IMG/VR virus record: IMGVR_UViG_2548876935_000008 | Strand: one strand, 5' to 3' | Source: a virus | Lineage: Duplodnaviria; Heunggongvirae; Uroviricota; Caudoviricetes | DNA length: 24,534 nt | Part shown: one piece after another, positions 2,189 to 20,590 of the stretch | Layout: every line of letters begins with the position of its first letter | Position numbering within the stretch: position 1 is the stretch's first letter | Notes under the pieces: model-generated | The model's input: only the letters and a program-made list of their open reading frames with translations | Told to the model about the DNA's origin: nothing | Database searches by the model: none | Translations under genes and position numbers: made by a program

Positions 2189-3089
2189 CCGTTCCTCCGT
2201 TGGTTACGCTCCACTGCGTACATGATGCCGCCTGTGTTTTGTTCAGGACCACATCCGCCAGCGGAGAAGCCAGTTCCACACGTTGAACACCCTCAACATG
2301 CAGAGCAGCAAAGATGGCGCTACGGCGAATATCCCGACCAAGCCTCGTCTGGCTGGCAATGTACTTCTGCAGACTGGCTTTTGCCGCTGCCATTACCGGC
2401 TCTGCTTCCGGTCCCGGATAGAGAAAAATGGTGGCTTCCACGCGATACGGGATGATTTCTGCGCTGCGAACCGTAAGACGGTCAGCCACCGGGCGGACGT
2501 TCTCACTGTTCAGAGCTTTTTCCACCACGTCCAGCAGGTCTTTTTCTGCAGTTCCATCGCCTTCGCGGCTAAGGACAGTCAGCACCACCTCTGCAGGTGC
2601 CGGGCTGGTTGCACTGGCATCCGCTACCCGACCGTCGGCGCTTCGGGCATGAAATTCATAAGCTGCAGTTGGCCCCGCAACAGAAAGCCCTTCAAAGGCT
2701 GCAGGCACACGCTGGCGTAACGCTTCATCGCTTTCCATCACAGCTGCAACGGGCGGCACAGCATCATTATCAGCAGGCGTCACCGTCAGGCGTGTCACGT
2801 TGTAGTTGGCAGCGAGCTGGTCAAGATCGCCGCCCATCGCGTAAGCCACCATCACCGCCTGCGCGGCTTCGTTAATGCGCTGGCGCAGAAGCAACTCACG
2901 GTAAGCGTTCTCCTGCAACAATTTAGTGACGGGTTCAGATTCCAGTTCCAGCGTGCGGATCACGGCTTCCTGCTCATCTTTCGGATGAAGCGCAACAAAT
3001 TGGGCCTTGCGTTCGGCAAGCAGCGTCTCAAAGTCCGGCACATCCACAATCTGCGGTGCAGGCAACTGCGAAAGGTCAATCACTGCCAT
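2181..3089 (-). CDS. Baseplate protein (P2 gpJ-like)
   Basis: ORF 2181..3128; start chosen at the internal ATG at 3089 (MAVIDLSQLPAPQIVDVPDFE...), which matches the P2 gpJ N-terminus and gives 302 aa, overlapping the stop of the W gene. Confidence 0.8.
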   Translation of the reverse strand: MAVIDLSQLPAPQIVDVPDFETLLAERKAQFVALHPKDEQEAVIRTLELESEPVTKLLQENAYRELLLRQRINEAAQAVMVAYAMGGDLDQLAANYNVTRLTVTPADNDAVPPVAAVMESDEALRQRVPAAFEGLSVAGPTAAYEFHARSADGRVADASATSPAPAEVVLTVLSREGDGTAEKDLLDVVEKALNSENVRPVADRLTVRSAEIIPYRVEATIFLYPGPEAEPVMAAAKASLQKYIASQTRLGRDIRRSAIFAALHVEGVQRVELASPLADVVLNKTQAASCTQWSVTNGGTDE

Positions 3090-3435
3090 TCTCTGCTCCT
3101 GTTGATACGGAAAGGGACACAGGCACACCGTTATTCCGCCGCCCGGTCAGCTCCACCACCATAGAACCGTCAAAGTTGCTGTTGATGGTGATGGAATCCA
3201 GCGTCAGCCGTGGCTCCCAGCGACTCAGCGCCACATACACTGCCGACATGACCTGCAGGCGTAATGCCGGATTTTGTGGCTGATCTATTAAAACCGACAG
3301 GAGGGAACCATATTCCCGGCGGGCAATGCGGCTACCCTGCGGTGTCAGCAGAATGTCCCGCACCGACTGGCGCAGATGATCAATATCAGTAATGACTTTG
3401 CCGCTGGTATTGTTCATCCCGCTATAAAGCGTCAT
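3076..3435 (-). CDS. Baseplate wedge protein (P2 gpW-like, GPW/gp25 family)
   Basis: 119 aa ORF in the P2 position between V and J; size and sequence character fit the gpW/gp25 family. Confidence 0.8.
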   Translation of the reverse strand: MTLYSGMNNTSGKVITDIDHLRQSVRDILLTPQGSRIARREYGSLLSVLIDQPQNPALRLQVMSAVYVALSRWEPRLTLDSITINSNFDGSMVVELTGRRNNGVPVSLSVSTGAENGSD

Positions 3436-4010
3436 ACCGGGCCTCCGGTTGTATCGCCGCCTTTCAGGACGCCAGTATGCTGATGCGCATCAACCACAAT
3501 CCCGTTAGAGCTCATCGCTCCGCCGCCCTGGGTAACGCCACCATTGATCACCACTTCGCTGTTAATACGCGTGCGGTCAGCCTCCAGCACAAACTCACTG
3601 GTTTTCAGGGTGATATTGTCAGCGGCCTCAATGACCATTGATTTGATGCCCCTGACATACCAGCGCCCGGTGGCGGGTTCGTATTCAAACCAGCCGCCGT
3701 CCGGGTATTCCGTCACGTTGCCGTCCTCAGAGCCTGAAGGTGGCGGAAACTGGTTTGAGTAGACCGCAGGCAGGGCAAACGCGGTTTCCAGATTGCCGCC
3801 AAGGCTGAACAGCACAACCTGCTCACCCACAGACGGTTTCCACCAGGTGCGCGATTTGCCCGCGCGCAGTGTCAGCCAGTTAATCCAGTTGGTTTCGAGG
3901 TCGCCCGTTTTCACCCGACACAGCCAGTTTGCCCTGTCCACTTCGGTGACTACACCTGTGCGGATCAGGTTGGTGATAAGGCGCATGATTTCGGTTAATT
4001 GTGCGTTCAT
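3432..4010 (-). CDS. Baseplate spike / central hub protein (P2 gpV-like)
   Basis: 192 aa; N-terminus MNAQLTEIMRLITNLIRTGVVTEVD resembles P2 gpV (MN...IRTG...), followed by W..W.....G.SRTWW.PSVGEQV. Confidence 0.85.
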   Translation of the reverse strand: MNAQLTEIMRLITNLIRTGVVTEVDRANWLCRVKTGDLETNWINWLTLRAGKSRTWWKPSVGEQVVLFSLGGNLETAFALPAVYSNQFPPPSGSEDGNVTEYPDGGWFEYEPATGRWYVRGIKSMVIEAADNITLKTSEFVLEADRTRINSEVVINGGVTQGGGAMSSNGIVVDAHQHTGVLKGGDTTGGPV

Positions 4011-4056
4011 AGGGAAAGGTTGCCATCAGGGGAAGAAAGGCGGCAGTGCTGCAACT

Positions 4057-4074
4057 TGTATCAGTGCTGATACA
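4057..4074. promoter_or_regulatory. TGT-N12-ACA dyad (candidate Ogr/Delta-type late-activator site) in the S-V intergenic gap
   Basis: Seen directly: TGTatcagtgctgatACA, part of a perfect 9-bp inverted repeat TTGTATCAG-tg-CTGATACAA (4056..4075). Centre lies about 55 bp upstream of the V start codon at 4010. P2 late promoters are known to carry a TGT-N12-ACA element. Confidence 0.35.
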
Positions 4075-4078
4075 AAGA

Positions 4079-4525
4079 TCACCCCGCCAGCCATTGCAGA
4101 ATCATGTCGCGGGTCATTGCCTCAACATCATCATTTACACCCAGAAGGCGACGCTCTGCGTAACGGACCTCAGGTCCTTTGCGACTGACGCGATCGCGCA
4201 AGCCGTAATGGTGAACACGGGCAATGCGCTGCACCTTACCTTCAAACTGCACGCTGGCAGAGTCGGCGCTGGCGGCAGTTTTCAGGTATTTTGTGGTGCG
4301 AATTTTTGTAAACATCTGCCGTTTGATACGGCCTTTTTTACTGCGTGCTGTTACTCGCCTCGGTTCATAGCTGCTGCCATCAGGATTGCGTTGCATCCTG
4401 ATGTTCTGCTGCTGTGTCCGGCGCAGTTCCTGCGCCAGCTGGCGCATCATGCGGCTTCTGGCGGCTGGTTCCAGATTCGCCAGCAAGGCACTCAGCCAGT
4501 CGTCCACTTTCTGCAGTTCAGCCAC
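4079..4525 (-). CDS. Tail completion protein (P2 gpS-like)
   Basis: 148 aa ORF in the P2 position after R and before V; overlaps the R stop. Confidence 0.75.
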   Translation of the reverse strand: MAELQKVDDWLSALLANLEPAARSRMMRQLAQELRRTQQQNIRMQRNPDGSSYEPRRVTARSKKGRIKRQMFTKIRTTKYLKTAASADSASVQFEGKVQRIARVHHYGLRDRVSRKGPEVRYAERRLLGVNDDVEAMTRDMILQWLAG

Positions 4526-4970
4526 GTTTCACCGTCCACATTTCTTCAGGTTCATCAGGTTCCGCTATAGCTTCAACACTCGACACACTACCGTCAGTGC
4601 TGACCAGCACACGCTCCGTCAGTTGCAGGTTCAGGCTGATATCACAGACATCGTTGCGCAGAATATCCACCTCAAAGGTGAATAGTTTTTCCCGTAACGC
4701 CGGGTTATTGATGGCATCGGGCTGGTTATCCCTCAGCCACAGCAAAACCGGGGCCATCAGCAGATTCTGGTCGCCGCTGAAATCCTCAATCACCGCGTTC
4801 AGGGTGTAACGGTACTCCCACGACATGGAGCTGGCCCCCGTGGCAACCAGCGAACCGTTATCCACAAACAGATGCAGTTTGTCTGGGTTATTGCGGACAT
4901 AAGGCACCGCTTTATTGAGGGCGTGGCGCAGGGATTGTGGTTTGTTCACTGTTTCGCTCCTGACACGCAA
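4518..4970 (-). CDS. Tail completion protein (P2 gpR-like)
   Basis: 150 aa; ...KPQSLRHALNKAV...LHLFVDNGS... resembles the P2 gpR N-terminus (MLKPDSLRRAL...). The true start may be slightly downstream of the first ATG. Confidence 0.7.
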   Translation of the reverse strand: MRVRSETVNKPQSLRHALNKAVPYVRNNPDKLHLFVDNGSLVATGASSMSWEYRYTLNAVIEDFSGDQNLLMAPVLLWLRDNQPDAINNPALREKLFTFEVDILRNDVCDISLNLQLTERVLVSTDGSVSSVEAIAEPDEPEEMWTVKRG

Positions 4971-5202
4971 TAATCATGTCCACTTTGTCTGCACAGACCG
5001 CCCAGGCGGCCTCCGTTTCATCCAGCAACGCGTTCAGGTCACCGTTAGTGCGCGGCGCTGCCTGCCCCAGCCGACACGGCGTCACTCGCGGACAACCACT
5101 GACGGTAAGCTGCACCTCCGGTGAGTGTGGGGCGTTCCCGCAGCCGGATAATGTCAGCAGGCAAAGGAGTATCAGTCCAGCGGCGTAAATCCTCGTTCTC
5201 AC
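4912..5202 (-). CDS. Outer-membrane spanin lipoprotein (LysC / Rz1-like o-spanin)
   Basis: 96 aa; N-terminal signal peptide with lipobox (MRTRIYAAGLILLCLLTLSGC). Starts inside the 3' part of the i-spanin gene in another frame, the classic overlapped spanin arrangement. Confidence 0.65.
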   Translation of the reverse strand: MRTRIYAAGLILLCLLTLSGCGNAPHSPEVQLTVSGCPRVTPCRLGQAAPRTNGDLNALLDETEAAWAVCADKVDMIIACQERNSEQTTIPAPRPQ

Positions 5203-5473
5203 GTTTCAGTTCCTCAATCCGGTGTTGTCGTTGTCTCAGCAGTACACTGGTCTGTTCTGCTTCGGCATAGAGCCGCGCCTGCTCCCGGTTATTGGTTTCA
5301 GTCAGAATGGACAGGCTGATAAGCTGGCTGTTGCTCTTTGCCAGTGCCTGGCTTTTGCTCCGAAGCTCGTCTGCCTGCGTGCTGATGGTCTGGCTGGCAT
5401 CAGCCAGCCGCCACGTCTGCCAGCCCAGCGCCGCCAGTAATAACGCCAGCACAACCAGCAGCAACCGGTTCAT
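5045..5473 (-). CDS. Inner-membrane spanin (LysB / Rz-like i-spanin)
   Basis: 142 aa; N-terminal transmembrane segment (MNRLLLVVLALLLAALGW), then a charged, coiled-coil-like periplasmic region. Position after lysA as in P2. Confidence 0.7.
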   Translation of the reverse strand: MNRLLLVVLALLLAALGWQTWRLADASQTISTQADELRSKSQALAKSNSQLISLSILTETNNREQARLYAEAEQTSVLLRQRQHRIEELKRENEDLRRWTDTPLPADIIRLRERPTLTGGAAYRQWLSASDAVSAGAGSAAH

Positions 5474-5847
5474 GCTGCTACCTGTTGCGCAATCTGATTA
5501 CGGATCATCCAGAAGGCAATAACGGTCAGCAGATAAAAGACCAGGGTAATAGCCCACCCCGTCCAGGCGAAACTTACGACAATCAGCAATCGCATCACCC
5601 AGCTGATAAATACGTTTTCTTTTCGGGTAATGGTCTTTAGCAAAGATGCCCTCAACTCCTGCCAGAGCGGGCCGTTCTTAATTAACGCAGCCAGTGCTAC
5701 CGGAATTACCGCCCATGTCAGCAGACAGGCTACCCAGACACCGGACGCTGCCAGTACCGGAAAAATCCCCTGCGGATACACCATTGCTGCGATCAACAGC
5801 GCCATCCATAACATCAGAAACAGCCCGCTGATTACTTTCTTTTTCAT
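5470..5847 (-). CDS. LysA-like membrane protein (lysis timing modulator)
   Basis: ORF 5470..5919; start chosen at ATG 5847 (MKKKVISGLFLMLWMALLIAAMV...), preceded by GGAG and 1 nt after the endolysin stop. Several hydrophobic helices. P2 position between the endolysin and lysB. Confidence 0.6.
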   Translation of the reverse strand: MKKKVISGLFLMLWMALLIAAMVYPQGIFPVLAASGVWVACLLTWAVIPVALAALIKNGPLWQELRASLLKTITRKENVFISWVMRLLIVVSFAWTGWAITLVFYLLTVIAFWMIRNQIAQQVAA

Positions 5848-5848
5848 T

Positions 5849-6361
5849 TCAGTTTGCTCCCTGTAAGCACCAGGCCATCTCCCGCGCACGGCGGTTATCC
5901 AGCCCCTGATTAAAAACACCTTTCACATAAACCCAGCGCGGCAACTGTCGGCACGCATCCGCCCAGCGCCGCTGATTGAGTAATTTCACCAGTGTGGAAC
6001 TGCAGGCATTGCCCGTTCCCACGTTGAAGGCAAACGACACCGCAGCGTCATACACCTTCTGCGGCGGCTGTTGCTTCACACACCTTTCCAGCGCCCGCTC
6101 CACACGCAGCACGTTGGAGATCAGCCCTTCTGCTGCCTGTCGCTCCGTAATGGTTTTGCCGGGAATGACGCCCGACGTATTACCAATGCCGTCGGTCCAG
6201 ACACCCGCGCTGCACTGATACGGCTGCAGACGACAGCCTTCGTAATCAGCAATCAGTTTCAGCCCCTCCACGGAGGTGTGAAGCTGCTGAAAACCCGGCA
6301 GCGTGGCAGCAATAGCCAGCACGGCCCCGACAAGGCAGCGTTTAACGATTGATGGATTCAT
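5849..6361 (-). CDS. Endolysin, T4-lysozyme-like (GH24) with a probable N-terminal SAR (signal-anchor-release) domain
   Basis: 170 aa; weakly hydrophobic Gly/Ala-rich N-terminus (VKRCLVGAVLAIAATLPGF), then a lysozyme core with E...D/C...T spacing (EGLKLIADYEGCRLQPYQCSAGVWTDGIGNT) and ...FAFNVGTGN..., resembling P21 R-type SAR endolysins. Confidence 0.8.
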   Translation of the reverse strand: MNPSIVKRCLVGAVLAIAATLPGFQQLHTSVEGLKLIADYEGCRLQPYQCSAGVWTDGIGNTSGVIPGKTITERQAAEGLISNVLRVERALERCVKQQPPQKVYDAAVSFAFNVGTGNACSSTLVKLLNQRRWADACRQLPRWVYVKGVFNQGLDNRRAREMAWCLQGAN

Positions 6362-7977: not shown

Positions 7978-9036
7978 TTACGCTCCGGTTTCGGCTGCGG
8001 CGGCGCTGAAATCACCAATCTGGATGTTTTCCACCAGTGCGGCGCAGCGGTAGTCCTCAACCACATAGGCTTCATTAACGGATTCAAAGTTTTCAATCCG
8101 GTCACGTTTCGGGTTGTCGATAACTGAACGGCGGCGGGTGTCTTCCTGCCAGTAGATGGACAGGTTATCCAGACGGGTGATCAGCAGTGCATTCGGCGGG
8201 AAGAACGGCGCACGCACGGCCTGCAGGCCACCCATGCGTTTCTGACTGATGATCATATCGGCAGCCAGTTTTTCACTGTTTTCCTGCTCTTTGTTGACCA
8301 GTGGGAAATACTTGTCAGACAACAGTTCACGACCGCAAATCACCACCAGATCGTCATCGTCCTGGTAGACCACGTCGATAAGCTCATTGACGGCATCCAT
8401 CACCACGGCGTCCAGGTTGGCATATTCGCCACCTTTCCCGACTTTCACCGCACCCGGTGTGGTTTCACCGCCCGTGGTGGTGCTGCCCATGACGTGATCC
8501 GGTGCATCCTCACGGATTTTCTGCAGCCAGCCTTTATTCACATCCTGCAGCAGCGGGTTTTCGCTACGGTTTGAGGTTTTCGCACGCTTCACGCCGTTAA
8601 AGCCGATCATGATGCGGTCCAGTGCCTGACGTTTCACGATCGCGTCACGAATACGCACCTGGAAATCCTGAAACTTCGCCCACAGGTCCAGCTTCGCGTA
8701 GGTCAGCACCGTGTCAAAGTTGGTCTGCTCGCATTTGTATTCCACATCGACCATCAGCGTCGGATCGACAGGCTCACGCTCTTTTGCGGTGGTATCAGTG
8801 GTTCCGGCAATGGTGCTGCCAACACCCAGCCCCAGCAGCTGACCAGACTGCTCGGTCACTGGCGTGACGTTAATCAGCGTCAGGAAAGCGGCGGATTGCT
8901 GGATCTGGTCTTCCAGCGTCTGCTGCACAGACGGCTCCACGGTGAACTTGCTGGACAGTTCTTCAACTGCCACACCGTTCAGACGCGCCAGCTGCTGCAG
9001 GTAAGCGTTAAAAGCAAAGCGGGTATTCTTCTTCAT
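7978..9036 (-). CDS. Major capsid protein (P2 gpN-like)
   Basis: 352 aa; N-terminus MKKNTRFAFNAYLQQLARLNGV and length match the P2 gpN family. Confidence 0.9.
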   Translation of the reverse strand: MKKNTRFAFNAYLQQLARLNGVAVEELSSKFTVEPSVQQTLEDQIQQSAAFLTLINVTPVTEQSGQLLGLGVGSTIAGTTDTTAKEREPVDPTLMVDVEYKCEQTNFDTVLTYAKLDLWAKFQDFQVRIRDAIVKRQALDRIMIGFNGVKRAKTSNRSENPLLQDVNKGWLQKIREDAPDHVMGSTTTGGETTPGAVKVGKGGEYANLDAVVMDAVNELIDVVYQDDDDLVVICGRELLSDKYFPLVNKEQENSEKLAADMIISQKRMGGLQAVRAPFFPPNALLITRLDNLSIYWQEDTRRRSVIDNPKRDRIENFESVNEAYVVEDYRCAALVENIQIGDFSAAAAETGA

Positions 9037-9052
9037 CAGGTTTTGTGCTCCA

Positions 9053-9886
9053 TCAGCAATTGGTCAGAGTGTCAGCGGGGGCGTTACCGCCTGTTGCACG
9101 CTGGCGGTAGTCCTGGCGGCTGTCTTCATGACTCAGCTTATTCACCAGTTCGTTAAAGGCGGTCTGCTGTGCCTGCAGGGCAGTCTCCAGCTCAGACAGA
9201 CGTTCTTCCTGCTCAGACAGGGATTTTTCGGTGCGTGCGCTCAGGTTCTGCTGCTCAGTGGCGACCAGCTCCACGGCCTTATGCACATCAGAGAACCGGG
9301 CGTCATCGGACTGCTCTTTTTTGGTGAACAGCGCCGTGACACGGGCAAACAGGGACGGTTTGTCATCCTGGATTTCTTCCAGTTCGATCACCGTTTCCTC
9401 TGCAGCGGTAAAGAGATTGGCAGGATTCTGCTTGCGGTTTGCCAGCGGGTTATGGGCTGCACTGGCGCTGAATGTCAGCATTTCAGTGCCCAGACTGGCA
9501 GGGTCATCAGTGGCAGCCAGGCCGACCAGGTAGGCTTTGCCCGTATCAGCGAACTTCGGGCTGACTTCCATAGAGGTGAATAATTTCTGGCCTTTTTTCA
9601 CCAGCTCCACCAGGGACTCCGTTGGCTCAACGTCGGCATACAGCGCCATCTTGCCTGCCAGCGGACCTTCCGTGATTTCTTCAGCAAACAGCGCCGTCAC
9701 CTTGCCGTAGCGGTTAAAGGTGCTGTCCGGCAGATAAGACTTGATGTGCTCAAGGTTAATCAGCGCGGTGTACACCGTCGGGTTGTAGCTGGCTGCCATC
9801 TGTTCCAGCCATTCACGCTGGATTTCGCGTCCGTCGGTGGTGGCACCTTCCACCCCGATGCGAAAACGCTTTACTTTCACTGTCAT
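9053..9886 (-). CDS. Capsid scaffolding protein (P2 gpO-like)
   Basis: 277 aa; MTVKVKRFRIGVEGATTDGREIQREWLEQMAASYNP... matches the gpO scaffold N-terminus. Divergent from P, as in P2. Confidence 0.85.
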   Translation of the reverse strand: MTVKVKRFRIGVEGATTDGREIQREWLEQMAASYNPTVYTALINLEHIKSYLPDSTFNRYGKVTALFAEEITEGPLAGKMALYADVEPTESLVELVKKGQKLFTSMEVSPKFADTGKAYLVGLAATDDPASLGTEMLTFSASAAHNPLANRKQNPANLFTAAEETVIELEEIQDDKPSLFARVTALFTKKEQSDDARFSDVHKAVELVATEQQNLSARTEKSLSEQEERLSELETALQAQQTAFNELVNKLSHEDSRQDYRQRATGGNAPADTLTNC

Positions 9887-9964
9887 GAGCCGTGCTCCGT
9901 TAGAAAAAACTTACTGGAGCCTTATGGTTGCGGTGATGGGGGCAGTGAAACAATGCGCGGTATT

Positions 9965-9982
9965 TGTACCGACAACCACACA
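9965..9982. promoter_or_regulatory. TGT-N12-ACA dyad (candidate late-activator site) in the divergent O/P promoter region
   Basis: Seen directly: TGTaccgacaaccacACA with flanking TTTGT/ACAAA symmetry. Centre about 55 bp upstream of the P start codon (10029) and about 87 bp from the O start (9886). Confidence 0.3.
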
Positions 9983-10028
9983 AACCGCAGGCGGGGAAAG
10001 CCTTCATTCAAGGCTGTAGGTTTGTGCC

Positions 10029-11795
10029 ATGAACACCACACTGACACCCGCAGATCTCGATCCCCGTCGGCAGGCCATGCTGCTGTACTTTCAGGGATAC
10101 CGCGTAGCCCGCATTGCTGAAATGCTGGGCGAGAAAGTTGCAACCGTTCACAGCTGGAAAAAACGCGACAAGTGGGGTGACTATGGGCCGCTGGATCAGA
10201 TGCAGCTCACCACCGCCGCACGCTACTGCCAGCTCATTATGAAGGAGCACAAAGAAGGGAAAGATGTCAAAGAGATTGACCTGCTGGCGCGCCAGTCGGA
10301 ACGCCACGCGCGGATCGGCAAGTTTAACAATGGCGGCAACGAAGCCGACTTAAACCCTAACGTCGCCAACCGCAACAAAGGCCCGCGCCGTCAGCCGGAA
10401 AAGAATGTCTTCACCGATGAACAGATTGAGAAGCTGGAAGAAATCTTCCATTCCTCCATGTTCAACTACCAGCGCCACTGGTGGGAAGCCGGAAAAACCA
10501 ACCGCATCCGCAATCTGCTGAAGTCACGCCAGATCGGCGCGACCTTTTACTTTGCCCGTGAAGCCCTGATTGACGCTCTGCTTACCGGACGTAACCAGAT
10601 TTTTCTTTCCGCCAGCAAGGCACAGGCCCACGTCTTCAAACAGTACATCATCGACTTTGCCAAAGAAGTGGAGGTGGAGCTGAAAGGCGATCCGATGGTG
10701 CTTCCCAACGGGGCCACACTGTATTTCCTCGGCACCAATGCCCGCACTGCCCAGAGTTACCACGGTAACCTGTATCTGGATGAATATTTCTGGATACCGA
10801 AATTCCAGGAGCTGCGCAAAGTGGCATCCGGTATGGCTATTCACAAAAAATGGCGACAAACCTATTTTTCCACGCCATCCAGCCTGACACACAGTGCTTA
10901 TCCGTTCTGGTCCGGTGCGCTGTTCAACCGTGGGCGCAACAAAGCCGATAAGGTGGACATCGACCTGTCCCACAACAATCTGGCCCCCGGCCTGCTGTGC
11001 GCAGACGGGCAATACCGCCAGATAGTCACCGTGGAAGATGCGGTGCGCGGCGGCTGTAACCTGTTCGACCTCGACCAGTTGCGCATGGAGTACAGCCCGG
11101 ACGAATACCAGAACCTGCTGATGTGTGAGTTCGTAGACGATCTCGCGTCCGTGTTCCCGCTCAGCGAGCTGCAGGCGTGCATGGTGGACAGCTGGGAAGT
11201 CTGGACCGACTTTCATGCACTGGCCCTGCGCCCGTTTGGCTGGCGCGAGGTGTGGATCGGTTATGACCCGGCAAAAGGTACGCAGAACGGCGACAGTGCC
11301 GGATGCGTTGTGGTGGCTCCGCCAGCCGTGCCGGGCGGTAAGTTCCGCATTCTTGAGCGTCACCAGTGGCGCGGGATGGACTTCCGCGCCCAGGCGGACG
11401 CCATCAAAAAACTGACCGAACAGTACAACGTGACCTATATCGGCATCGACTCGACCGGCGTCGGTCACGGGGTTTATGAGAACGTGAAAGCGTTCTTTCC
11501 TGCCGTCCGGGAGTTTGTCTACAACCCCAACGTTAAAAACGCGCTGGTACTCAAGGCCTACGACATTATCAGCCACCGCCGTCTGGAGTTTGACGCCGGG
11601 CACACCGACATTGCGCAATCATTTATGGCAATCCGTCGCGCCACCACCGCCAGCGGCAACCGCCCGACCTATGAAGCCAGCCGCAGCGAAGAAGCCAGCC
11701 ACGCCGATCTGGCCTGGGCAACGATGCACGCACTGTTTAACGAACCGCTGCAGGGCGAATCCGCCAATGCCAGCAATATTGTGGAGATTTTTTGA
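10029..11795 (+). CDS. Terminase large (ATPase) subunit (P2 gpP-like)
   Basis: 588 aa; length, position and sequence character match P2 gpP. Stop overlaps the Q start (ATGA). Confidence 0.9.
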   Translation: MNTTLTPADLDPRRQAMLLYFQGYRVARIAEMLGEKVATVHSWKKRDKWGDYGPLDQMQLTTAARYCQLIMKEHKEGKDVKEIDLLARQSERHARIGKFNNGGNEADLNPNVANRNKGPRRQPEKNVFTDEQIEKLEEIFHSSMFNYQRHWWEAGKTNRIRNLLKSRQIGATFYFAREALIDALLTGRNQIFLSASKAQAHVFKQYIIDFAKEVEVELKGDPMVLPNGATLYFLGTNARTAQSYHGNLYLDEYFWIPKFQELRKVASGMAIHKKWRQTYFSTPSSLTHSAYPFWSGALFNRGRNKADKVDIDLSHNNLAPGLLCADGQYRQIVTVEDAVRGGCNLFDLDQLRMEYSPDEYQNLLMCEFVDDLASVFPLSELQACMVDSWEVWTDFHALALRPFGWREVWIGYDPAKGTQNGDSAGCVVVAPPAVPGGKFRILERHQWRGMDFRAQADAIKKLTEQYNVTYIGIDSTGVGHGVYENVKAFFPAVREFVYNPNVKNALVLKAYDIISHRRLEFDAGHTDIAQSFMAIRRATTASGNRPTYEASRSEEASHADLAWATMHALFNEPLQGESANASNIVEIF

Positions 11796-12829
11796 TGGGA
11801 AAGAGTAAGAAGAACCGCGCTGCGGCGACGAATCAGATCCAGCTTAAAAGTCAAACTACAGCCGAAGCATTCAGCTTCGGCGATCCCGTTCCTGTTCTGG
11901 ACCGCCGAGAATTACTGGACTATGTGGAATGCGTACAGATGGACCGTTGGTATGAGCCGCCCGTCAGCTTTGACGGACTGGCGCGCACCTTCCGCGCTGC
12001 CGTGCATCACAGTTCCCCGATTGCAGTAAAGTGCAACATTCTGACCAGTACCTATATCCCTCACCCGCTGCTCAGCCAGCAGGCTTTTTCACGTTTTGTG
12101 CAGGACTACCTGGTATTTGGTAACGCCTACCTGGAGAAACGCACGAACCGCTTCGGTGAAGTTATCGCCCTTGAGCCTGCGCTGGCAAAATACACCCGAC
12201 GCGGGTTAGACCTAGATACCTACTGGTTTGTGCAATACGGTATGACAACCCAGCCGTATCAGTTCACGAAAGGCAGCATTTTTCATCTGATGGAACCGGA
12301 CATCAACCAGGAGATCTACGGCTTGCCCGGCTATCTTTCTGCCATTCCATCCGCCCTGCTCAACGAATCCGCCACGCTGTTCCGCCGTAAGTATTACATC
12401 AACGGCAGCCATGCAGGCTTCATCATGTACATGACCGACGCCGCGCAGAATCAGGAGGATGTGAACAACCTCCGCAACGCGATGAAAAGCGCCAAAGGTC
12501 CAGGCAACTTCCGCAACCTGTTTATGTACTCGCCTAACGGCAAAAAGGACGGGCTTCAGATCATTCCTCTGTCAGAAGTCGCGGCGAAGGATGAGTTTCT
12601 GAATATCAAAAATGTCAGTCGCGATGACATGATGGCAGCACACCGCGTACCGCCGCAAATGATGGGGATTATGCCGAATAATGTTGGGGGTTTTGGGGAT
12701 GTGGAGAAGGCGAGTCGAGTTTTTGTGCGAAATGAATTGAGGCCACTACAAAAGAGCCTATTAGAGCTGAACAACTGGTTAAAGGAGGATGTAATACATT
12801 TTGAGGATTATAACTTAGATATTCAATAA
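11792..12829 (+). CDS. Portal protein (P2 gpQ-like)
   Basis: 345 aa; length and position (after P, next to the cos side of the genome) match P2 gpQ. Confidence 0.9.
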   Translation: MMGKSKKNRAAATNQIQLKSQTTAEAFSFGDPVPVLDRRELLDYVECVQMDRWYEPPVSFDGLARTFRAAVHHSSPIAVKCNILTSTYIPHPLLSQQAFSRFVQDYLVFGNAYLEKRTNRFGEVIALEPALAKYTRRGLDLDTYWFVQYGMTTQPYQFTKGSIFHLMEPDINQEIYGLPGYLSAIPSALLNESATLFRRKYYINGSHAGFIMYMTDAAQNQEDVNNLRNAMKSAKGPGNFRNLFMYSPNGKKDGLQIIPLSEVAAKDEFLNIKNVSRDDMMAAHRVPPQMMGIMPNNVGGFGDVEKASRVFVRNELRPLQKSLLELNNWLKEDVIHFEDYNLDIQ

Positions 12830-12833
12830 TCTT

Positions 12834-12857
12834 AAAAACCTGCATATGCAGGTTTTT
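12834..12857. terminator. Bidirectional rho-independent terminator between convergent Q and the three-gene cassette
   Basis: AAAAA-CCTGCATATGCAGG-TTTTT: perfect palindromic stem flanked by an A-run and a T-run, so it reads as a hairpin plus U-tract on both strands. Confidence 0.6.
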
Positions 12858-12892: not shown

Positions 12893-13558
12893 TCAAAGCT
12901 CTGAGTCTACAGGCTCATGATAAAGGTTTACAGGGTAGTGTATAACCTCATAATTAAGTTGACTAACAGTGTGAGTATGTTGACTGTAAAAAACCAATGG
13001 GTTTCTCTTACAAGGAGTTATCGAGATAGACTTACAAGCATGAATTCTTGGAGCCGATTTATCTAAATGAGCCTTCCACTTAGTCATCATTTCATTACAT
13101 TTTTTATTACGCGTATATATAATTAACCCACCACTTGCACTGTCTACAGTACCAGTGCTATATCGCTCAGTGAGTTGTGCATACCCTTTAAATAAATAAC
13201 TATATGAACCAGTGTGTTTTTTGGCCTCGCCATGCCAAGTAAATCTATTCAACTTTATTGTTATATCACAATGACCTCGTTGATTATTTTCATGATATGC
13301 TTCAATTCCCATATCTTTATTTTTTATATTTGCCAGTAAAATTAAAGTAAGCTGATCTTCTGTTAAATCAAAATTCAATTTATTTGAATTTTCCTCAATT
13401 GCCTGTACAGCAGAATCAAGCTCAATTCTTACAAACTGTTTGAAGTTCTCATACGACTGGAGAGCAAACCTAACGCGAGTAATAGAAGCATTGATACGCT
13501 GAAGAAAAATATCATTATCAATTTCAGCTAAACTCATTGGTGCAGACATTTTTAACAT
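12893..13558 (-). CDS. Hypothetical protein, cassette gene 3 (221 aa); possible PD-(D/E)xK-like nuclease motif
   Basis: AT-rich ORF; ATG overlaps the upstream stop (TGATG). Contains ...GHCDITIKLNRFTWHGEAKKH..., a D-x12-E-A-K arrangement reminiscent of restriction-endonuclease-fold active sites (inference only). Confidence 0.55.
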   Translation of the reverse strand: MLKMSAPMSLAEIDNDIFLQRINASITRVRFALQSYENFKQFVRIELDSAVQAIEENSNKLNFDLTEDQLTLILLANIKNKDMGIEAYHENNQRGHCDITIKLNRFTWHGEAKKHTGSYSYLFKGYAQLTERYSTGTVDSASGGLIIYTRNKKCNEMMTKWKAHLDKSAPRIHACKSISITPCKRNPLVFYSQHTHTVSQLNYEVIHYPVNLYHEPVDSEL

Positions 13559-13992
13559 CAGACAATATCCTTTAATTTAGATTCATCTAATGTAAAAAAA
13601 GGAAAGACGAAGGACTTATAGTCATACATAATCTCCCCTGTAAATGGGTTTACTAAAGATTGATTAATTTCAGCCTCTATAACATCTTCTAACTCAAGCT
13701 CAATAGGATCATGAAAATCATCAATAAACCAATAATTGAGTTTTAAAAACTCAACCTTTGGACTACAAAGAATTTGTATAGCTGGGTACACAACCTGCTC
13801 ATATGCTTCAGGTTGTATACATCCTTTATAACCATTAACGATACTAAATAAATCTTTATAACTCAGAGCTATATTAGGCGATTTCTTTGCTCTCACACCA
13901 ATTTCATCATACAAATAGCAAGCTAGCGCCCCTATATCAGGGCGCTCTGCACATATTTCTTTGATGATCTGGGGCATATCACCATCCTTCAT
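13558..13992 (-). CDS. Hypothetical acidic protein, cassette gene 2 (about 144 aa)
   Basis: ORF 13558..14004 as tracked uses a TTG; the in-frame ATG at 13992 is preceded by GGAG at good spacing. AT-rich; no recognisable motif. Confidence 0.55.
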   Translation of the reverse strand: MKDGDMPQIIKEICAERPDIGALACYLYDEIGVRAKKSPNIALSYKDLFSIVNGYKGCIQPEAYEQVVYPAIQILCSPKVEFLKLNYWFIDDFHDPIELELEDVIEAEINQSLVNPFTGEIMYDYKSFVFPFFTLDESKLKDIV

Positions 13993-14004
13993 TGCTGACT
14001 CCAA

Positions 14005-15111
14005 TTATAATATCAGCTTTGTGAGGGTTTCGAAATCATCTTTGGATATACATTTGCTTAATATAGCATAATTGACAGGAGAGCACCCACTACCACCTAA
14101 ATGTCTGCGTAATGTTCCTGGAATGATAAGCTCTACACTATCCGCCAATTGCAATTTTGGATTATTCCTATCTACTCTAATTCCAATACGATATAAACCA
14201 ATATTACCTACAGCTTTAATGCCCTCTTTATTAAACAGATCATCACGCAAGTCTTTCTTAGCCACATTTTTCTTTTCCTTATGAGTGGTTCCCTCATAAG
14301 TTAAAAATGACAAATCGAACACCTTATAACTTAAACTTGAATATGGCATTACATTTTGCTTGAAAATTGGCTCAATTAATGGATAAAAATCCTTTTCCGA
14401 TGAATTAAATTGATAACCTGCGCAATTATATAACTCACGAATAAAATTCGTTTTCGCAAAAACGATATTATCACCAACAACATTACCATTAGTATCAATT
14501 AATACATGGATTTTATTTGAAGCTGAATCTAATATACACACATCAAAACACTGACGTTTTTCTTTTCTCTTCGCAATGATTTCATCAAACTGTTTGTATG
14601 CTGCTAACTTTGACGGAGGGACTTTCTCTCTTACAACCAGCTCCCTGATAGATGAAAATACCAAAATAGACTGAGTATTTTGCTTAGAGTAATTAACAAG
14701 CTCAAGTTGATTTTTAATAGCATGCTGTAATTGAACATCATCAACAATCGTTTCGACTAATGATGTTGGTTGCTTCATCATATTCCATTGGAGAGCATAT
14801 CTATCATCAAGTAATTTAATTACTTGACTATCTACAGACAAACTAAATATTGCTTTTTCACCATAAACAACCTGCCCAAAGACTAAATCATTTACACTTG
14901 CAATGATTTTGTCAAATTTTTGCCTATCTTTCTTTTTAAAATCAATGAGGCTTTCTAGTATTTTGTCGTTTGTTGCTTCACGCCCTCTACCTGTAGGTAG
15001 CCCTAAAGAAGCAATAATTGGTCTGGCGATATGCCACGTAAAACGTTCAGTTAAGGCTAAGATCGACTTTAACTCAAAGTCAGAAAGCACCACTGGGACA
15101 CCACTTGTCAT
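14005..15111 (-). CDS. Hypothetical protein, cassette gene 1 (368 aa)
   Basis: Tracked ORF begins at a GTG (15120); the in-frame ATG at 15111 is preceded by AGGTG 6 nt upstream. AT-rich; no Walker A/P-loop seen; no recognised family. Confidence 0.6.
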   Translation of the reverse strand: MTSGVPVVLSDFELKSILALTERFTWHIARPIIASLGLPTGRGREATNDKILESLIDFKKKDRQKFDKIIASVNDLVFGQVVYGEKAIFSLSVDSQVIKLLDDRYALQWNMMKQPTSLVETIVDDVQLQHAIKNQLELVNYSKQNTQSILVFSSIRELVVREKVPPSKLAAYKQFDEIIAKRKEKRQCFDVCILDSASNKIHVLIDTNGNVVGDNIVFAKTNFIRELYNCAGYQFNSSEKDFYPLIEPIFKQNVMPYSSLSYKVFDLSFLTYEGTTHKEKKNVAKKDLRDDLFNKEGIKAVGNIGLYRIGIRVDRNNPKLQLADSVELIIPGTLRRHLGGSGCSPVNYAILSKCISKDDFETLTKLIL

Positions 15112-15271
15112 AACATGCACCTAGTCAACCCAAAAGCAATTGAAAATCGCTCTTGTCTTAATTTTTTCCATCAATATCTAACAAATTACCTTAATGTTGA
15201 AAAAGTTTGCAAGCCATTTGCGTCTAAAAAGTGACTTGACTCAATGTGTTACAAAGCTTAGCGAGCGCGCG

Positions 15272-15290
15272 CTCGTATCCCCGCCACGCC
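15272..15290 (-). other. Candidate cos site (cohesive-end region) of the P2/186-like phage
   Basis: Minus strand reads GGCGTGGCGGGGATACGAG. From memory, P2 and 186 cohesive ends begin GGCGAGGCGGGGAAAGCAC and GGCGTGGCGGGGAAAGCAT. Orientation relative to Q is as in P2. Adjacent perfect palindrome GCGAGCGCGCGCTCG at 15261..15275. Confidence 0.45.
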
Positions 15291-15339
15291 TGCCCGCTTT
15301 ATGTAGTAGTTTTCATGCAGGTGCATGATCTACGCAAAA

Positions 15340-15407: not shown

Positions 15408-16250
15408 TCATGCACGATCATTTGACTCAGCATCTGCTGCACGCTTGCTGCGCGAAGATGCACTTTTACTACCAATCTTTCGACAGTTCTTTCTATCCCT
15501 GGCTTCATTTTCTTTAAATTTGTTATATGTCTCAGTATCAAAAAACGAAATTGTTTCAACCTCATCTTTTGGTATGAGCACACGGAAATCTTCGATATTA
15601 AGCCGAGACATTCCACTTATCACACCACTATCAAGATAATGTTGGTGATAGTTAGTCGTGATACTAATCGTTAGATCATCTTTATCCCGATATCCGCTTA
15701 ACATCGGGAGAAGTTCAAGGTGTTCTGAAAGCCCGTTTTCTAACGCCGGACAAGTAACAAGACCAACATAGATTTTGCGAGACGACAGAGTTGCTATGAT
15801 CGGAAACTGTCTTGCAGACGCTTCCATGAGTAATGATTCGAAAGCGTTATTACCCACAGCTTTAGCTAAGGCATCCCAGCGACGATCTCCACGTGATGTG
15901 CGTAACTTATTTCCAAAACCTGAAATCGCAGCGAGAACAATTGAAATCATAACCCATGCTATCTGTTTGATTTCATTTATTCTTTGAAGTTTGTCTTTCG
16001 ATGAAGACAACATGCCATTAAAACTGTCAGGTGTTAGATTCAAGGCATTAGCCAGCCAACGAAACCCTCCGCTGACGTTCAAAATAAAGGTGAAAAAACC
16101 GCCAAGGAGAAAAAAAACGATACCCCAGGCAGCCACAAAAAAATAAGCGTCCCAGCCGTTGGAACGCTTATATCGGTATCTTGTTGAAAGTGATAGGTTT
16201 ACATAAATAAAACCACTAACCAAAATCACTGCTAAAAGTAATGTTGCCAT
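15408..16250 (-). CDS. Hypothetical membrane protein (280 aa; about three N-terminal transmembrane helices plus a cytoplasmic domain)
   Basis: Hydrophobic segments MATLLLAVILVSGFIYV, FFVAAWGIVFFLLGGFFTFIL and IAWVMISIVLAAISGF; soluble C-terminal half of unknown fold. ATG overlaps the stop of the upstream 71-aa gene (TAATG). AT-rich. Confidence 0.6.
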   Translation of the reverse strand: MATLLLAVILVSGFIYVNLSLSTRYRYKRSNGWDAYFFVAAWGIVFFLLGGFFTFILNVSGGFRWLANALNLTPDSFNGMLSSSKDKLQRINEIKQIAWVMISIVLAAISGFGNKLRTSRGDRRWDALAKAVGNNAFESLLMEASARQFPIIATLSSRKIYVGLVTCPALENGLSEHLELLPMLSGYRDKDDLTISITTNYHQHYLDSGVISGMSRLNIEDFRVLIPKDEVETISFFDTETYNKFKENEARDRKNCRKIGSKSASSRSKRAADAESNDRA

Positions 16251-16735: not shown

Positions 16736-16969
16736 TTAATGCAGCCAGCTGTCGTCTTCCCACACCTTCTGCATAATTTTCATCACTTGCTTCCTTTCTT
16801 CGTCCAGTTGCAGTCCAGTCAGTTCCACACCGTTAGAGCTACCTTTGCGGATGCGAATTACCGTTTTTGGATATAGGGGGCGCAGATTGCGGTAAAGCTC
16901 GGATTCAAGGGCGTCCAGGGTAGACTGGCTAATCTTCTGCTCTTTATCGATCATTATTTCAATGCGCAT
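16736..16969 (-). CDS. dinI: DinI-family protein (DNA-damage-inducible protein I-like)
   Basis: ORF 16736..17041; start chosen at ATG 16969 (preceded by GAGGTGA). MRIEIMIDKEQKISQSTLDALESELYRNLRPLYPKTVIRIRKGSSNGVELTGLQLDEERKQVMKIMQKVWEDDSW resembles E. coli DinI (MRIEVTI...AL..EL.RR...FPD....V.......L.V.G...E.K..I..ILQE.WE..D.W). Confidence 0.7.
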   Translation of the reverse strand: MRIEIMIDKEQKISQSTLDALESELYRNLRPLYPKTVIRIRKGSSNGVELTGLQLDEERKQVMKIMQKVWEDDSWLH

Positions 16970-16979
16970 AAAAGTCACC

Positions 16980-17168
16980 TCAGCTGATGACATCCATTGA
17001 GCGGTTGTATTCGTGGGTTCTGATTTTTGCCATGAGTTCATCTGTCAGTTCAGAAACCCACTGCAAAGCCAGCCCCTTCTCTTCATCACTACACTCACTA
17101 GCCGCTACAAGCTTAAGAAAAAAATCAATGCGCTGGAGCTTCAAAGACTCCAAAAAATAGTCCTGCAT
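16980..17168 (-). CDS. Small SOS-regulated protein, putative Tum-like antirepressor (62 aa)
   Basis: ORF 16980..17270; start chosen at ATG 17168 (MQDYFLESLKLQ...), preceded by AGGAGGAAAG. Sits directly downstream of a LexA box and upstream of a DinI-like gene, the arrangement of the 186 tum operon. Function inferred from context only. Confidence 0.45.
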   Translation of the reverse strand: MQDYFLESLKLQRIDFFLKLVAASECSDEEKGLALQWVSELTDELMAKIRTHEYNRSMDVIS

Positions 17169-17211
17169 CTTTCCTCCTATGACACCACAAGCAATACTGT
17201 ATGTACAACCA

Positions 17212-17227
17212 CTGTTTATATTTACAG
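17212..17227. promoter_or_regulatory. LexA box (SOS operator), CTGT-N8-ACAG, in the promoter of the tum/dinI-like operon
   Basis: Seen directly: CTGTTTATATTTACAG, a perfect match to the CTGT-N8-ACAG consensus, 44-59 bp upstream of the ATG at 17168 and overlapping AT-rich -10-like hexamers. A partial second site (CTGTATGTACAACCAC) abuts it at 17197..17212. Confidence 0.6.
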
Positions 17228-17321
17228 TATATAATAATCTTACTGATGTAAAACGTTTTTTTACGTTCATCAGCCTGATATGCCTGGTATTATTAAGAGC
17301 ACGAATTGTTAACCCGCGTAA

Positions 17322-19736
17322 TTAATACAGGTTTCGCCACTTATCATCTTCCTGCAAACGCTGGTTCCGATAGAAGATACGCAGGCCTGCTCCTGACGGA
17401 ATACTGCCGCCGCGAAGGAGTAAATCGACCTCTTTCTCGCTGCCATCAAATCCTCTGGACTTCAGTTCATAGACGAGCTGCTGTCGCTGATGGTCTGTAA
17501 TTCGCTGTTTGTAGTCTTTACGCCGTTTCGGTTTCACCAGGCGTAACCTTGCAGCCAGTTCCCGGCGCTCTTTTTTGCTCATACTGTGCAGGTAATCGTG
17601 CAACTCCTTGTCATCCATGCGGGTAATGTCCGTCCTGGTATCCCCATCAGCTGATTTGTCTTTCCCTTGTTGGTTCAAATTTTCAGCAAGGGGACAGTTA
17701 TTGCCACGAGTCCAAGGGGCGCAAGCGCCCTGGTCGGCTGCCGCCTCCTGAACGTCAACGGCCTTACGAACTATTTTCCACTTCACTGCATGAGTGCAGA
17801 TCTTGCCCTCTGCAATGGGTGACCAGATGCCATAAATACGAATACCGTGATCACCATAGGCGGTCGGCTCTTCGTTGATTTCATAAGCGGTTCTGATCAA
17901 GTGATATTTGCGGGGAACCAGTACGCCGCCCTGCTTCATGATGTAGGTGGCAAAACAACCAGCATCAGCAGCAGCCAGGATGGCATCAAGGCGCGGGTTA
18001 TCCAGTACCGGCGCACCTGCTTTTTTGTCACCCTGTTGCCTTGCCGCCTGACCAGCCAGCAATCGCAGTTCACGGTAAGCCTGACGCCCCGGAATGCCAA
18101 AGAAGCGGAATTGCTGAACACGATGCAGAGACGCCCAGGCATTAACGTATTCAGCGTTATCACGCAGGGATTTACCCGTTTCCTTACTGATCTCGCCAGC
18201 CAGACCACGCCCGTCAATATTCTTACTGATATATTTCGCAATGTAGCTTGTCGGCGTTCCTTTGCGCGGGTTTATCAGCTCAGACTTAAAGCGTGGCCCC
18301 GTGTTATTGCCCAGCTCCTCGCGGTCTTCACGGATGGCAAACTTACGCAACAATGCAGTAATGGCGCGGCGGTCTTTTTTGCGCATGAAACACAACAGGT
18401 GCCAGTGAACTGTGCCGTCATGATGCGGCTCAGCCACCCGCACGCCATACCAGCGCAACCCGGCTTTGTGCATAGCCTTACGAAATGCAGCAAACATGCC
18501 GACCAGATAATCGCTGCTTTGTCTTACTGTCGCGTTGGTCCAGGTCGGGTTTGGCCTACCGTTATTTAGCGTGGAATGGAAACGTGACGGACAAGTGATG
18601 GTGTAGAAAACGGCGCAGTCACCACGCATTTCCGCGATAAGCTCCAGGCCTTTAACACAGGCCATCATCTCGTTGCGGCGATGCGCCGGGTTGCTGCTGC
18701 TGGCGTTTACCACATCCTCCATGTTCAGCGTGTCGCCGTCTTCGTTCACCAGTTCATGAGAACGGAAAAACTCCAGCGACTTACGGCGCTGCTCACGTTT
18801 ATGCATCACGGCTTCATAGCTGACATAGGGAGATGCTTTTTTGCTGACCAGGCAGACAGCACGCAACTGCTCTTCCCGCCATTCGCAACGCATCTTCCAT
18901 AATTTCCGATACCACCAGTCGGCGCACAGCATACGCGCCAGCGACCCCGGAATGAGTTCATAGGGCACGGGTTTACGGCGGTTTCTTTTCCGGCGGAGTT
19001 GCTCAAACGCAGGCGGTATGACATCCAGTCGCAGGGTTTCTGCTGCCACCTTTTCCCATGTCTTGCGGATTTCTTCTGGCTTAACGTCATCGGTGGCATA
19101 CAAATCACCACAAGCGGCATCAAGGCACATGCTCATATGCGCAGCGACAAGGATAGACAGGCGCTTCACCTGATCCTGACTCATTTCAGGCAGGATAAGC
19201 AGGCCATCCAGCCCTTCATGGCTTGCCATAAAGCGAAAAGAAGTGGATAGCTGACAGTCGCGGACATGCTCCAGTCGTTCCAGACATGGCTTAATCGTCT
19301 CACGCAAATAGCGGGAATAAGCCTTTGGCCTGCCCAGGCTGCTGAAATATTCAATACGTTGCATCAGCGGCTTGCTGATATGGGAAGGCTGGGCATTGAC
19401 GTCAGCCAGAATGACCATGTCTGGATTAAAACGCTGCTGCTCATGCGCCAGCTTTGCCCTGCTAATGAGCTTATCCTGCTCCATTTCGCGCTGGACAGGA
19501 TCACGGGATTCATTAAAGAAATAACGCTCCCAGACCTGATCACTCAGTGCCTCGCGGCGCAGTTGTTCCTGCTCGTTATCGGCAGCGTACAGAGTGATCA
19601 GGTTTGAAAGTGCAGAAACCGGCGCAACTTCCGCCGGGTCCTGATAAGGGTTAATAGCCTTTTTCGGGCTGTTCCATGAGAATGCTGCGGCGACCTCGTT
19701 AAAGCCGCTGCAGTTGTTCATATCATCATGGCTCAT
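17322..19736 (-). CDS. Replication initiation protein (P2 gpA-like rolling-circle endonuclease)
   Basis: 804 aa; position between the early-region genes and the cos-proximal cargo as in P2/186. Contains an HUH-type stretch ([10 protein letters not shown]). Stop of the upstream dam gene overlaps the start. Confidence 0.8.
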
Positions 19737-20590
19737 GCACGCACTCCGTATACGGCTGAACTATCCACGCCACGCGAAGGATCAAATCCCACCCAGCAGC
19801 GCGGCCCGGAAACAGCGATGATTTCAGTTGCAGATTTACTCTCACCAGCTGCTACGCCGATGCTGCGTTTTGCCTTGATGTAGTGGTGAGTAAAATTGCG
19901 ATACAGCGAACGGATCAGGGATGTGTCACTGTTAGAAACAATGACCGGATGTCCTTCTGATGACCGATGTTCAAGCACAGATGCCAGGCGATACTGGTCA
20001 TCTTCAGTGAAGCCATCAGTGTGATAGCCGGAAAACGTACCGTCATAAGGCGGATCGCAATACACAACATCCCCCGCGTGCAACATCGCCAGCGTTTCAT
20101 CGAAGCTGGCGCAGATAAACGTTGCCCGCTGGGCTTTCTCTGCAAATGCGCGAATTTCTTTTTCAGGGAAATACGGATTTTTATAATTACCGTAGGGAAT
20201 GTTGAAATGCCCGCTCTTGTTATAGCGACATAACCCACGGTAACCATGTCGATTGAGATACAGGAAATATACCGCTTTCATGAAATTAGTAATTTCAGTT
20301 GAGTAGTTAAACTCCTGCCTTATGTTGTAATAAGCCACCTCCCTGTTTGCTTCCTCAAATAAAACTCTGGCGCGAGATATAAATAATTCACAATCAGCGG
20401 CAACCTTTTTATAGAGGTTGATTAAATCAGGATTAATATCCGCAACCAGATAGCTGGGGTAATCCGTTTCCATCATCACTGCACAGGAACCCGCGAAAGG
20501 TTCAACCAGTCGCAGGCCAGCAGGAAGGTGTTTTTTCAGTTCTGGCATAATGGCGGTTTTATTTCCCGCCCATTTCAGGATGGTGCTCAT
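19733..20590 (-). CDS. dam: DNA adenine methyltransferase (Dam-like, N6-adenine MTase)
   Basis: 285 aa; motif I ([11 protein letters not shown]) and catalytic motif IV DPPY (VYCDPPYDG) are both visible in the translation. Confidence 0.85.

Follow-up and report, generated by a model that had tools for sequence, protein, structure and literature searches.

We present an analysis of a three-gene cassette carried in the window, i.e., the whole stretch of 24,534 nucleotides (nt) from IMG/VR virus record IMGVR_UViG_2548876935_000008, which is a P2-like prophage of Escherichia coli. The cassette lies on the minus strand between positions 12893 and 15111 and comprises three genes, referred to here as A, B and C. 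It is a well-supported candidate for a sensor-plus-nuclease defence system, located in a known hotspot and encoding protein families that no database describes. We regard it as quite probable that the cassette is an anti-phage defence system and as very probable that C acts as the effector and is catalytically active as a nuclease; the fuller reading of a three-component system in which A senses DNA, B controls C and C cuts is held with moderate confidence. The original prediction, made from the sequence alone, had singled out the cassette as a possible defence or exclusion system. The genomic context (the hotspot, the recurrence of the cassette and the score given to protein A by DefensePredictor) strongly supports it in that role as a candidate.

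The three genes and their products

The open reading frame (ORF) calls and the sequence agree with the predicted layout of three head-to-tail ORFs on the minus strand. Gene A (14005..15111) encodes 368 amino acids (aa) from its ATG, with a GTG at 15120 as an alternative start, and its product is a protein with an isoelectric point (pI) of 8.9 and a predicted RdgC-like fold, the proposed DNA-binding sensor or scaffold. A spacer of 12 nt, TTGGAGTCAGCA (13993..14004), in which a GGAG ribosome-binding site for B can be read, separates A from gene B (13558..13992; 144 aa), which shares its reading frame with A and encodes an acidic protein (pI 4.4) proposed as an adaptor or inhibitor of the nuclease. 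The stop codon of B and the start codon of gene C (12893..13558; 221 aa), the putative PD-(D/E)xK nuclease and proposed effector, overlap in the sequence TGATG. Upstream of A, a leader of 160 bp (15112..15271, minus strand) extending to cos is presumed to contain the promoter of the cassette. Downstream of C, a palindromic hairpin with an A5-stem-T5 structure (12834..12857) lies between the stop codon of the portal gene Q (12829) and that of C (12893), and is a predicted bidirectional intrinsic terminator for both the cassette and the convergent P-Q operon. A simple terminator scan did not flag the hairpin; RNA folding confirmed it instead, at -15.7 kcal/mol (z = -4.8; 0/200 shuffled sequences fold as well).

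Two alleles of the cassette, with 84.5% identity at the DNA level, are found in E. coli, and the full cassette in either allele is present in 21 of 5426 complete E. coli genomes, compared to more than 1100 that match the flanking portal and cos sequence only. All three ORFs can be taken as real genes under selection because the ratios of nonsynonymous to synonymous substitution rates (dN/dS) between the two alleles are low (A, 0.128; B, 0.139; C, 0.065). The RefSeq/PGAP annotation of an identical allele contains three coding sequences of the same lengths, each named "hypothetical protein".

Profile searches, one of the checks proposed at the outset, returned no significant match to Pfam, NCBIfam or PADLOC for any of the three proteins, and none of the hidden Markov models of PADLOC-DB v2.0.0 gave a hit. 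In PHROGs the proteins fall only into families 12777, 11490 and 9664, all of unknown function. Sequence and profile searches against chains in the Protein Data Bank (PDB) found nothing for A or C. When distant homologues were used as queries, ten A homologues yielded a single sub-significant PADLOC match (PDC-M02A, E = 0.004), and the best match among 19 C homologues was PDC-S54 (E = 0.002, for a single member). The three proteins contain no transmembrane segment, in that no window of 19 residues has a mean hydropathy above 1.6 (the maxima for A, B and C are 1.10, 1.05 and 0.60, respectively). The cassette thus includes no membrane component; it also lacks a methyltransferase and an NTPase, and its three genes are inseparable.

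The second proposed check, structure comparison, assigns predicted folds to two of the proteins, RdgC-like for A and BamHI-like PD-(D/E)xK for C, and the original view that none of the three carries a placeable signature was mistaken for C and, judging from the structural model, also for A. The predicted structure of C has the alpha/beta core of the restriction endonuclease-like fold together with the full catalytic constellation, namely an acidic residue on one strand, a (D/E)-x-K motif on the next and a glutamate on a helix. No variation is seen at E67, D98 and E111-A-K113 among 38 close homologues or among 19 sequences reaching down to 21% identity. The top structural matches are the type II restriction enzymes BamHI, OkrAI, BstYI and BglII, with sequence identity of only 7-8%; neither the single sequence nor the profiles matched anything in Pfam (its BamHI model included), NCBIfam or the PDB.

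For A, comparison of the predicted model places the protein in the RdgC three-dimensional fold, and the proteins of the viral library that are structurally closest to it come from phages and carry the annotations RdgC, recombination-associated or exonuclease. No relationship was detected at the level of sequence: the Pfam RdgC model (PF04381) matches none of 39 members of the A family, and hhalign gave probabilities of 0.09% and 0.75% for A profiles against E. coli RdgC and 0.17% for one A profile (A5) against lambda RexA. Conservation across the wide A family is highest at residues 262-294, with a motif resembling EL.F.T..GS.K.EK.R....DLR.E.FHK.G that includes a near-invariant R289; outside this stretch, D190 and D206 are likewise near-invariant. 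Such conserved charged residues could indicate a site of catalysis or ligand binding and not simply a surface for DNA binding.

Protein B has no relative in Pfam or the PDB. Its divergent copies are uniformly small and acidic (128-147 aa, pI 4.4-5.1) and share the motifs AIQxLxxP...LxLxYxFIDD...TGEL..DYK..VFP, and the stop codon of B overlaps or abuts the start of C at all loci. An apparent similarity of B to designed armadillo-repeat proteins, obtained with a profile of 13 sequences (whole-sequence E-values down to 2e-6), was rejected as an artefact because the scores sum over the tandem repeats of the target and the match disappeared with a more diverse profile of 15 sequences.

Distribution and prophage setting

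An initial word-indexed homologue search found relatives in Enterobacterales only, all of them hypothetical proteins, and a profile scan of genome contigs with the A2 profile found 4 loci only. When the A profile was run in an exhaustive HMMER search, at least 427 representative clusters, defined at 50% identity, were detected at E <= 1e-3 and 231 at E <= 1e-10, mostly consisting of full-length proteins of 340-380 aa. As far as these searches indicate, the A family is far larger than could have been known from the window itself. Ten sampled members had no match in Pfam, NCBIfam or PADLOC apart from the sub-significant PADLOC match given above.

The order A-B-C, with tight or overlapping junctions, is kept at every locus long enough to judge, which includes nine close loci, 27 of 27 viral contigs from IMG/VR, and all 8 sampled distant family members, where identity in A is ~20-25%. 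The sole apparently decayed copy of A among all loci examined is that of Klebsiella sp. I138 (locus L009, 8001-9103), where a frameshift splits the gene into two reading frames from approximately residue 133.

Across these loci the settings of the triad are diagnostic. The first is the gpA-gpQ hotspot of P2-like phages; the region from Q to gpA is the main defence hotspot of P2 (Rousset et al. 2022; Moura de Sousa et al. 2026), in agreement with the earlier description of the cos-proximal region as such a hotspot. In Providencia the triad lies in a P4-like satellite between the primase and psu/delta genes, and in a Citrobacter island it adjoins a helix-turn-helix (HTH) WYL-WCX regulator. It is present on large plasmids of Leclercia, Enterobacter and Pantoea, and it constitutes the only cargo of a 6.1-kb mobilisable Klebsiella plasmid. 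In chromosomal islands its neighbours include 1) a Type ISP/MmeI-like restriction-modification (R-M) gene, 2) a CD-NTase of a cyclic oligonucleotide-based antiphage signalling system (CBASS) with a SLATT effector, 3) an EcoRI-type methylase with GmrSD_N/HNH and 4) a reverse transcriptase together with a type I R-M system. As a conserved operon that recurs in hotspots, islands and mobile elements, the triad bears the generic genomic mark of a defence system.

Another copy of the small plasmid backbone offers a direct view of what else can occupy the same position. In contig L017 exactly the slot of the triad, flanked by mobC and the replicase gene, is occupied in the second backbone copy by GmrSD, a type IV restriction enzyme. 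This K. pneumoniae contig (NOVY01000095.1) contains two tandem small-plasmid backbones, at 2309-6000 and 8431-11019, with genes for a RelE/MqsA toxin-antitoxin (TA) pair, MobC and a Replicase/PriCT_1 protein, one copy with the triad and the other with GmrSD. The tandem arrangement is explained either by a co-integrate or by the joining, during assembly, of two plasmid variants that reside together.

The triad is also found in the nin region of a lambdoid prophage, where it retains a short fragment of the P2 portal gene. At loci L031, L032, L037, L046 and L051 from IMG/VR and at L009, a portal remnant of ~20-25% of the gene length flanks the triad and no terminase gene accompanies it; the surrounding genes at L031 are lambdoid, comprising YdaT, ParB-HTH, a DnaC-like loader, DUF1367 and antiterminator Q. 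The cassette has apparently been transferred to the lambdoid nin region from a P2-like phage, carrying along the 3' end of Q, because the triad is flanked by the portal remnant amid lambdoid genes. Exchange is also evident among P2-like phages. At L043, L047 and L050 the replication, portal and terminase sequences are 94-99% identical to those of the window, compared to 58% for A, 52% for B and 62% for C. By sequence comparison, the hotspot exchanges whole alleles of one system and not only different systems. This corresponds to the rapid swapping at hotspots that is described for defence loci.

Within the window, the cassette differs in composition from its surroundings, as had been noted. 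The G+C content is 0.33-0.34 between positions 13001 and 15000, compared to 0.51-0.63 in the structural genes and about 0.55 in the flanks, and the G+C content at third codon positions is 0.25-0.28 in the cassette genes compared to 0.62-0.71 in P and Q. This AT-rich composition, the hotspot location and the recurrence on other mobile elements strongly support the view that the cassette is horizontally acquired cargo.

Predicted defence systems number in the thousands, and this cassette is already among those that have been listed. The allele with 84% identity is system #91 of the P2 hotspot in Table S5B of Rousset et al. 2022, with 36 occurrences, where all three protein sequences are listed with no Pfam annotation; it is absent from the table of cloned systems. 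Protein A (WP_021580613.1, strain STEC384) appears in Table S10 of DefensePredictor (Science 2026) as a "Predicted novel defense gene", with a mean log-odds score of 8.40 relative to a strict cut-off of 4, and the cassette is not among the units cloned in that study. The description of the system as undescribed needs some qualification as far as listing is concerned and holds in that the system is unnamed and unvalidated in the searchable literature. The accession numbers of the cassette occur in the main text of no paper, full-text searches for RdgC-like or RexA-like defence components led to RexA work only, and the composition of the cassette corresponds to none of the P4 systems named recently (Crouga, Bandua, Aernus, Toga, Reve and Hailong). 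Because three relevant sources lay outside the search, we allow a small but appreciable chance that some homologue was validated earlier under another name.

The genes that flank the cassette are those of the prophage backbone. On the plus strand, the large terminase subunit P (10029-11795) is followed by the portal gene Q (11792-12829). The core of cos, which serves here as a boundary marker only, is a variant of the P2 19-mer at about positions 15272-15290. The canonical P2 19-mer has no match with up to 3 mismatches, and the assignment relies on a segment of 38 nt (approximately 15263-15300) identical to the annotated cos of phage Cartapus. Together with the ORF coordinates, this identity places the cassette between Q and cos, as proposed. 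The distance from the stop codon of Q to cos is about 2.44 kb in the window and 167 bp in P2, for which the earlier figure of about 100 bp was slightly low. The cos core, GGCGTGGCGGGGATACGAG on the minus strand, differs at ~5 positions from the canonical P2/P4 19-mer. The identical variant adjoins the Rst_3HP system of E. coli E1114 (clones in Table S2A of Rousset et al.), which suggests that P2-like phages include a separate group with its own cos/terminase specificity.

Across cos, where P2 carries old and tin, there is an ORF of 280 aa (15408-16250, minus strand) with two to three hydrophobic segments near the N-terminus (hydropathy up to 2.29); it belongs to phrog_3630 (function unknown) and has no match in Pfam or PADLOC. 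This ORF may be a second defence or exclusion candidate of the hotspot, consisting of a single gene for a membrane protein. It is separated by two small ORFs (101 and 96 aa, 16736-17270) from the gene for the replication endonuclease (17322-19736, minus strand), which is adjoined by a backbone gene for a Dam-type DNA adenine methylase (19733-20590, minus strand). The methylase is probably unrelated to the cassette because related P2-like phages with different cassette alleles encode it too.

Proposed mechanism and alternative explanations

In the mechanism we propose, the cassette would be swappable cargo of the cos-proximal hotspot of a P2-like prophage, with C as its effector, a putative PD-(D/E)xK DNA nuclease of the BamHI-like structural class whose activity is suggested by the fold and the invariant residues. 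Protein A would bind or encircle DNA and detect some feature of invading or replicating phage DNA, for which ends, recombination or replication intermediates and modified DNA are candidates. Protein B would keep C inactive, or bridge C to A, until A engages its ligand, and this engagement would release or position C. The nuclease would then cut DNA, resulting either in direct restriction of the phage or in death of the infected cell (abortive infection). With no methyltransferase, discrimination of self from non-self would have to come from A and B and not from host DNA modification. The parts of this scheme differ in strength: that A acts through DNA binding has about an even chance, and either specific role of B, as inhibitor or as adaptor, is doubtful.

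Several points weigh against the scheme. No phenotype for the cassette or any homologue was found in the searchable literature, some recent sources being out of reach, and the argument from genomic association fits toxin-antitoxin or addiction modules as well. The TM-scores obtained for A with Foldseek are low (0.3-0.48), and the predicted link to RdgC is one of fold only. In the case of RexA itself, the RexA paper indicates that DNA binding is not strictly needed for exclusion. The role of B is a guess, and a scan of the interval from cos to A for the sigma-70 consensus found no promoter site.

Among the alternatives, type IV-like modification-dependent restriction, in which A would read modified bases and recruit C for direct restriction with no abortive infection, is a specific version of the defence reading rather than a departure from it. 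In this narrow form we consider it unlikely: the cassette encodes no NTPase or translocase such as McrB, searches of A and B found no domain known to read modified bases, such as SRA, YTH or DUF3578, and the exchange of the triad with GmrSD on the plasmid backbone is evidence of an equivalent role but not of an equivalent mechanism.

A toxin-antitoxin or addiction module that stabilises the mobile element, with C as the toxin, B as its acidic antitoxin, A as a regulator or accessory and defence as a secondary effect, is rather unlikely. It draws on the gene arrangement, since a small acidic protein translationally coupled upstream of an enzyme, as B is to C, is typical of type II TA systems. 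On the other hand, the 6.1-kb plasmid already has a TA pair of the RelE/MqsA type, the slot of the triad is interchangeable with that of GmrSD, a restriction enzyme and not a stability module, and a large conserved third component such as A (about 370 aa) is atypical of TA pairs. The contexts of the triad are defence islands and hotspots, and because many TA systems double as defence systems, the explanation partly overlaps with the defence reading.

The two remaining explanations are contradicted by the distribution of the cassette. It is very unlikely that the triad is an accessory module for recombination or replication, i.e., an RdgC-like modulator of RecA plus a structure-specific nuclease serving the DNA metabolism of the prophage, as could be supposed from the annotations of the closest viral structural relatives of A (RdgC, recombination-associated or exonuclease) and from the modulation of RecA by E. 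coli RdgC (as cited in PMC11077077). The cassette is accessory, being present in 21 of 5426 genomes against more than 1100 with the flanking P2 sequence, and it is swapped between otherwise identical P2 backbones; its AT-rich foreign composition speaks against a core function, and a 6-kb plasmid, a P4 satellite and islands beside CBASS or R-M genes need no phage recombination module. Least probable is an orphan type II endonuclease, with a BamHI-like C protected by the prophage Dam and with A and B as unrelated genes. In its favour, the top structural matches of C are BamHI, OkrAI, BstYI and BglII, and a DNA adenine methylase gene exists in the same prophage (19733-20590). That gene, however, is part of the conserved P2-like backbone and lies ~5 kb from the cassette, on the other side of cos. 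At no locus does the cassette itself include a methylase, and the P4-like satellite and the 6.1-kb plasmid encode none at all. Moreover, the three genes stay together throughout the family, and C is just 7-8% identical to those enzymes and lacks a Pfam BamHI match.

Returning to the preferred reading, in which A senses, B controls and C cuts, we put forward tentatively, at somewhat less than an even chance, that the triad represents a new and widespread immune class in which a DNA clamp sensor of the RdgC fold licenses a BamHI-like nuclease via an acidic safety-catch protein. If this is true, the RdgC/RexA fold would be a general DNA-sensing module of prokaryotic immunity, and the sensing step of lambda RexAB, long without an explanation, would gain a counterpart that is soluble and amenable to biochemistry. 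Validation would establish a defence system composed of three protein families that domain and defence databases currently lack; its range extends well beyond E. coli and includes chromosomal defence islands and plasmids as well as P2 phages, P4 satellites and lambdoid prophages. It would also establish a second, independent exclusion role for the RdgC/RexA fold, with a soluble nuclease in place of a membrane channel, and the decades-old question of what a RexA-like sensor recognises could become testable. Such P2 hotspots are currently left unexplained by DefenseFinder and PADLOC, and the invariant residues are immediate targets for mutagenesis.

Comparison with known systems

A close analogue by location and gene count is Rst_3HP of E. 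coli E1114, the "hp+hp+hp" system, whose three genes lie in this P2 hotspot as well and whose activity against P1 has been validated (Rousset et al. 2022). The two have in common the hotspot, the number of genes, the adjoining cos variant and the lack of Pfam domains in all proteins. We considered whether the cassette is this system and rejected the identity since the proteins differ: those of Rst_3HP consist of 333, 359 and 227 aa, compared to 368, 144 and 221 aa in the cassette, Rousset et al. list the two separately, the best BLASTP E-value of Hp1, Hp2 and Hp3 against the cassette is 0.9, and there is no PADLOC hit at E <= 1.

GmrSD resembles the cassette in using the identical cargo slot on the sister copy of the Klebsiella plasmid and in likewise needing no methyltransferase. 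It differs in being a single polypeptide with DUF262/DUF1524 (HNH-type) domains, and it has no relation in sequence or fold to A, B or C.

Several nuclease systems offer comparisons for C, in all cases at low identity (just 7-16% to BamHI, OkrAI, BstYI, BglII, McrC, HamA, CdiA-CT EC869, Can2 and NucC). In contrast to the type II enzymes, C has no cognate methyltransferase. Hachiman pairs HamA with a helicase and McrBC pairs McrC with a GTPase, whereas the cassette has neither partner, and Can2 and NucC have a cyclic-nucleotide sensor domain that C lacks.

With respect to A, E. coli RdgC (PF04381) is a toroidal nucleoid-associated DNA-binding protein; A exceeds it in length by ~65 residues, and the gene for A is invariably accompanied by those for B and C. 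The RexA sensor of lambda RexAB is also built on the RdgC-type toroidal fold with non-specific DNA binding. RexA acts with a membrane partner, RexB, whereas the cassette has no RexB-like membrane protein; in its place there would be a soluble PD-(D/E)xK nuclease as effector, together with a third, acidic component.

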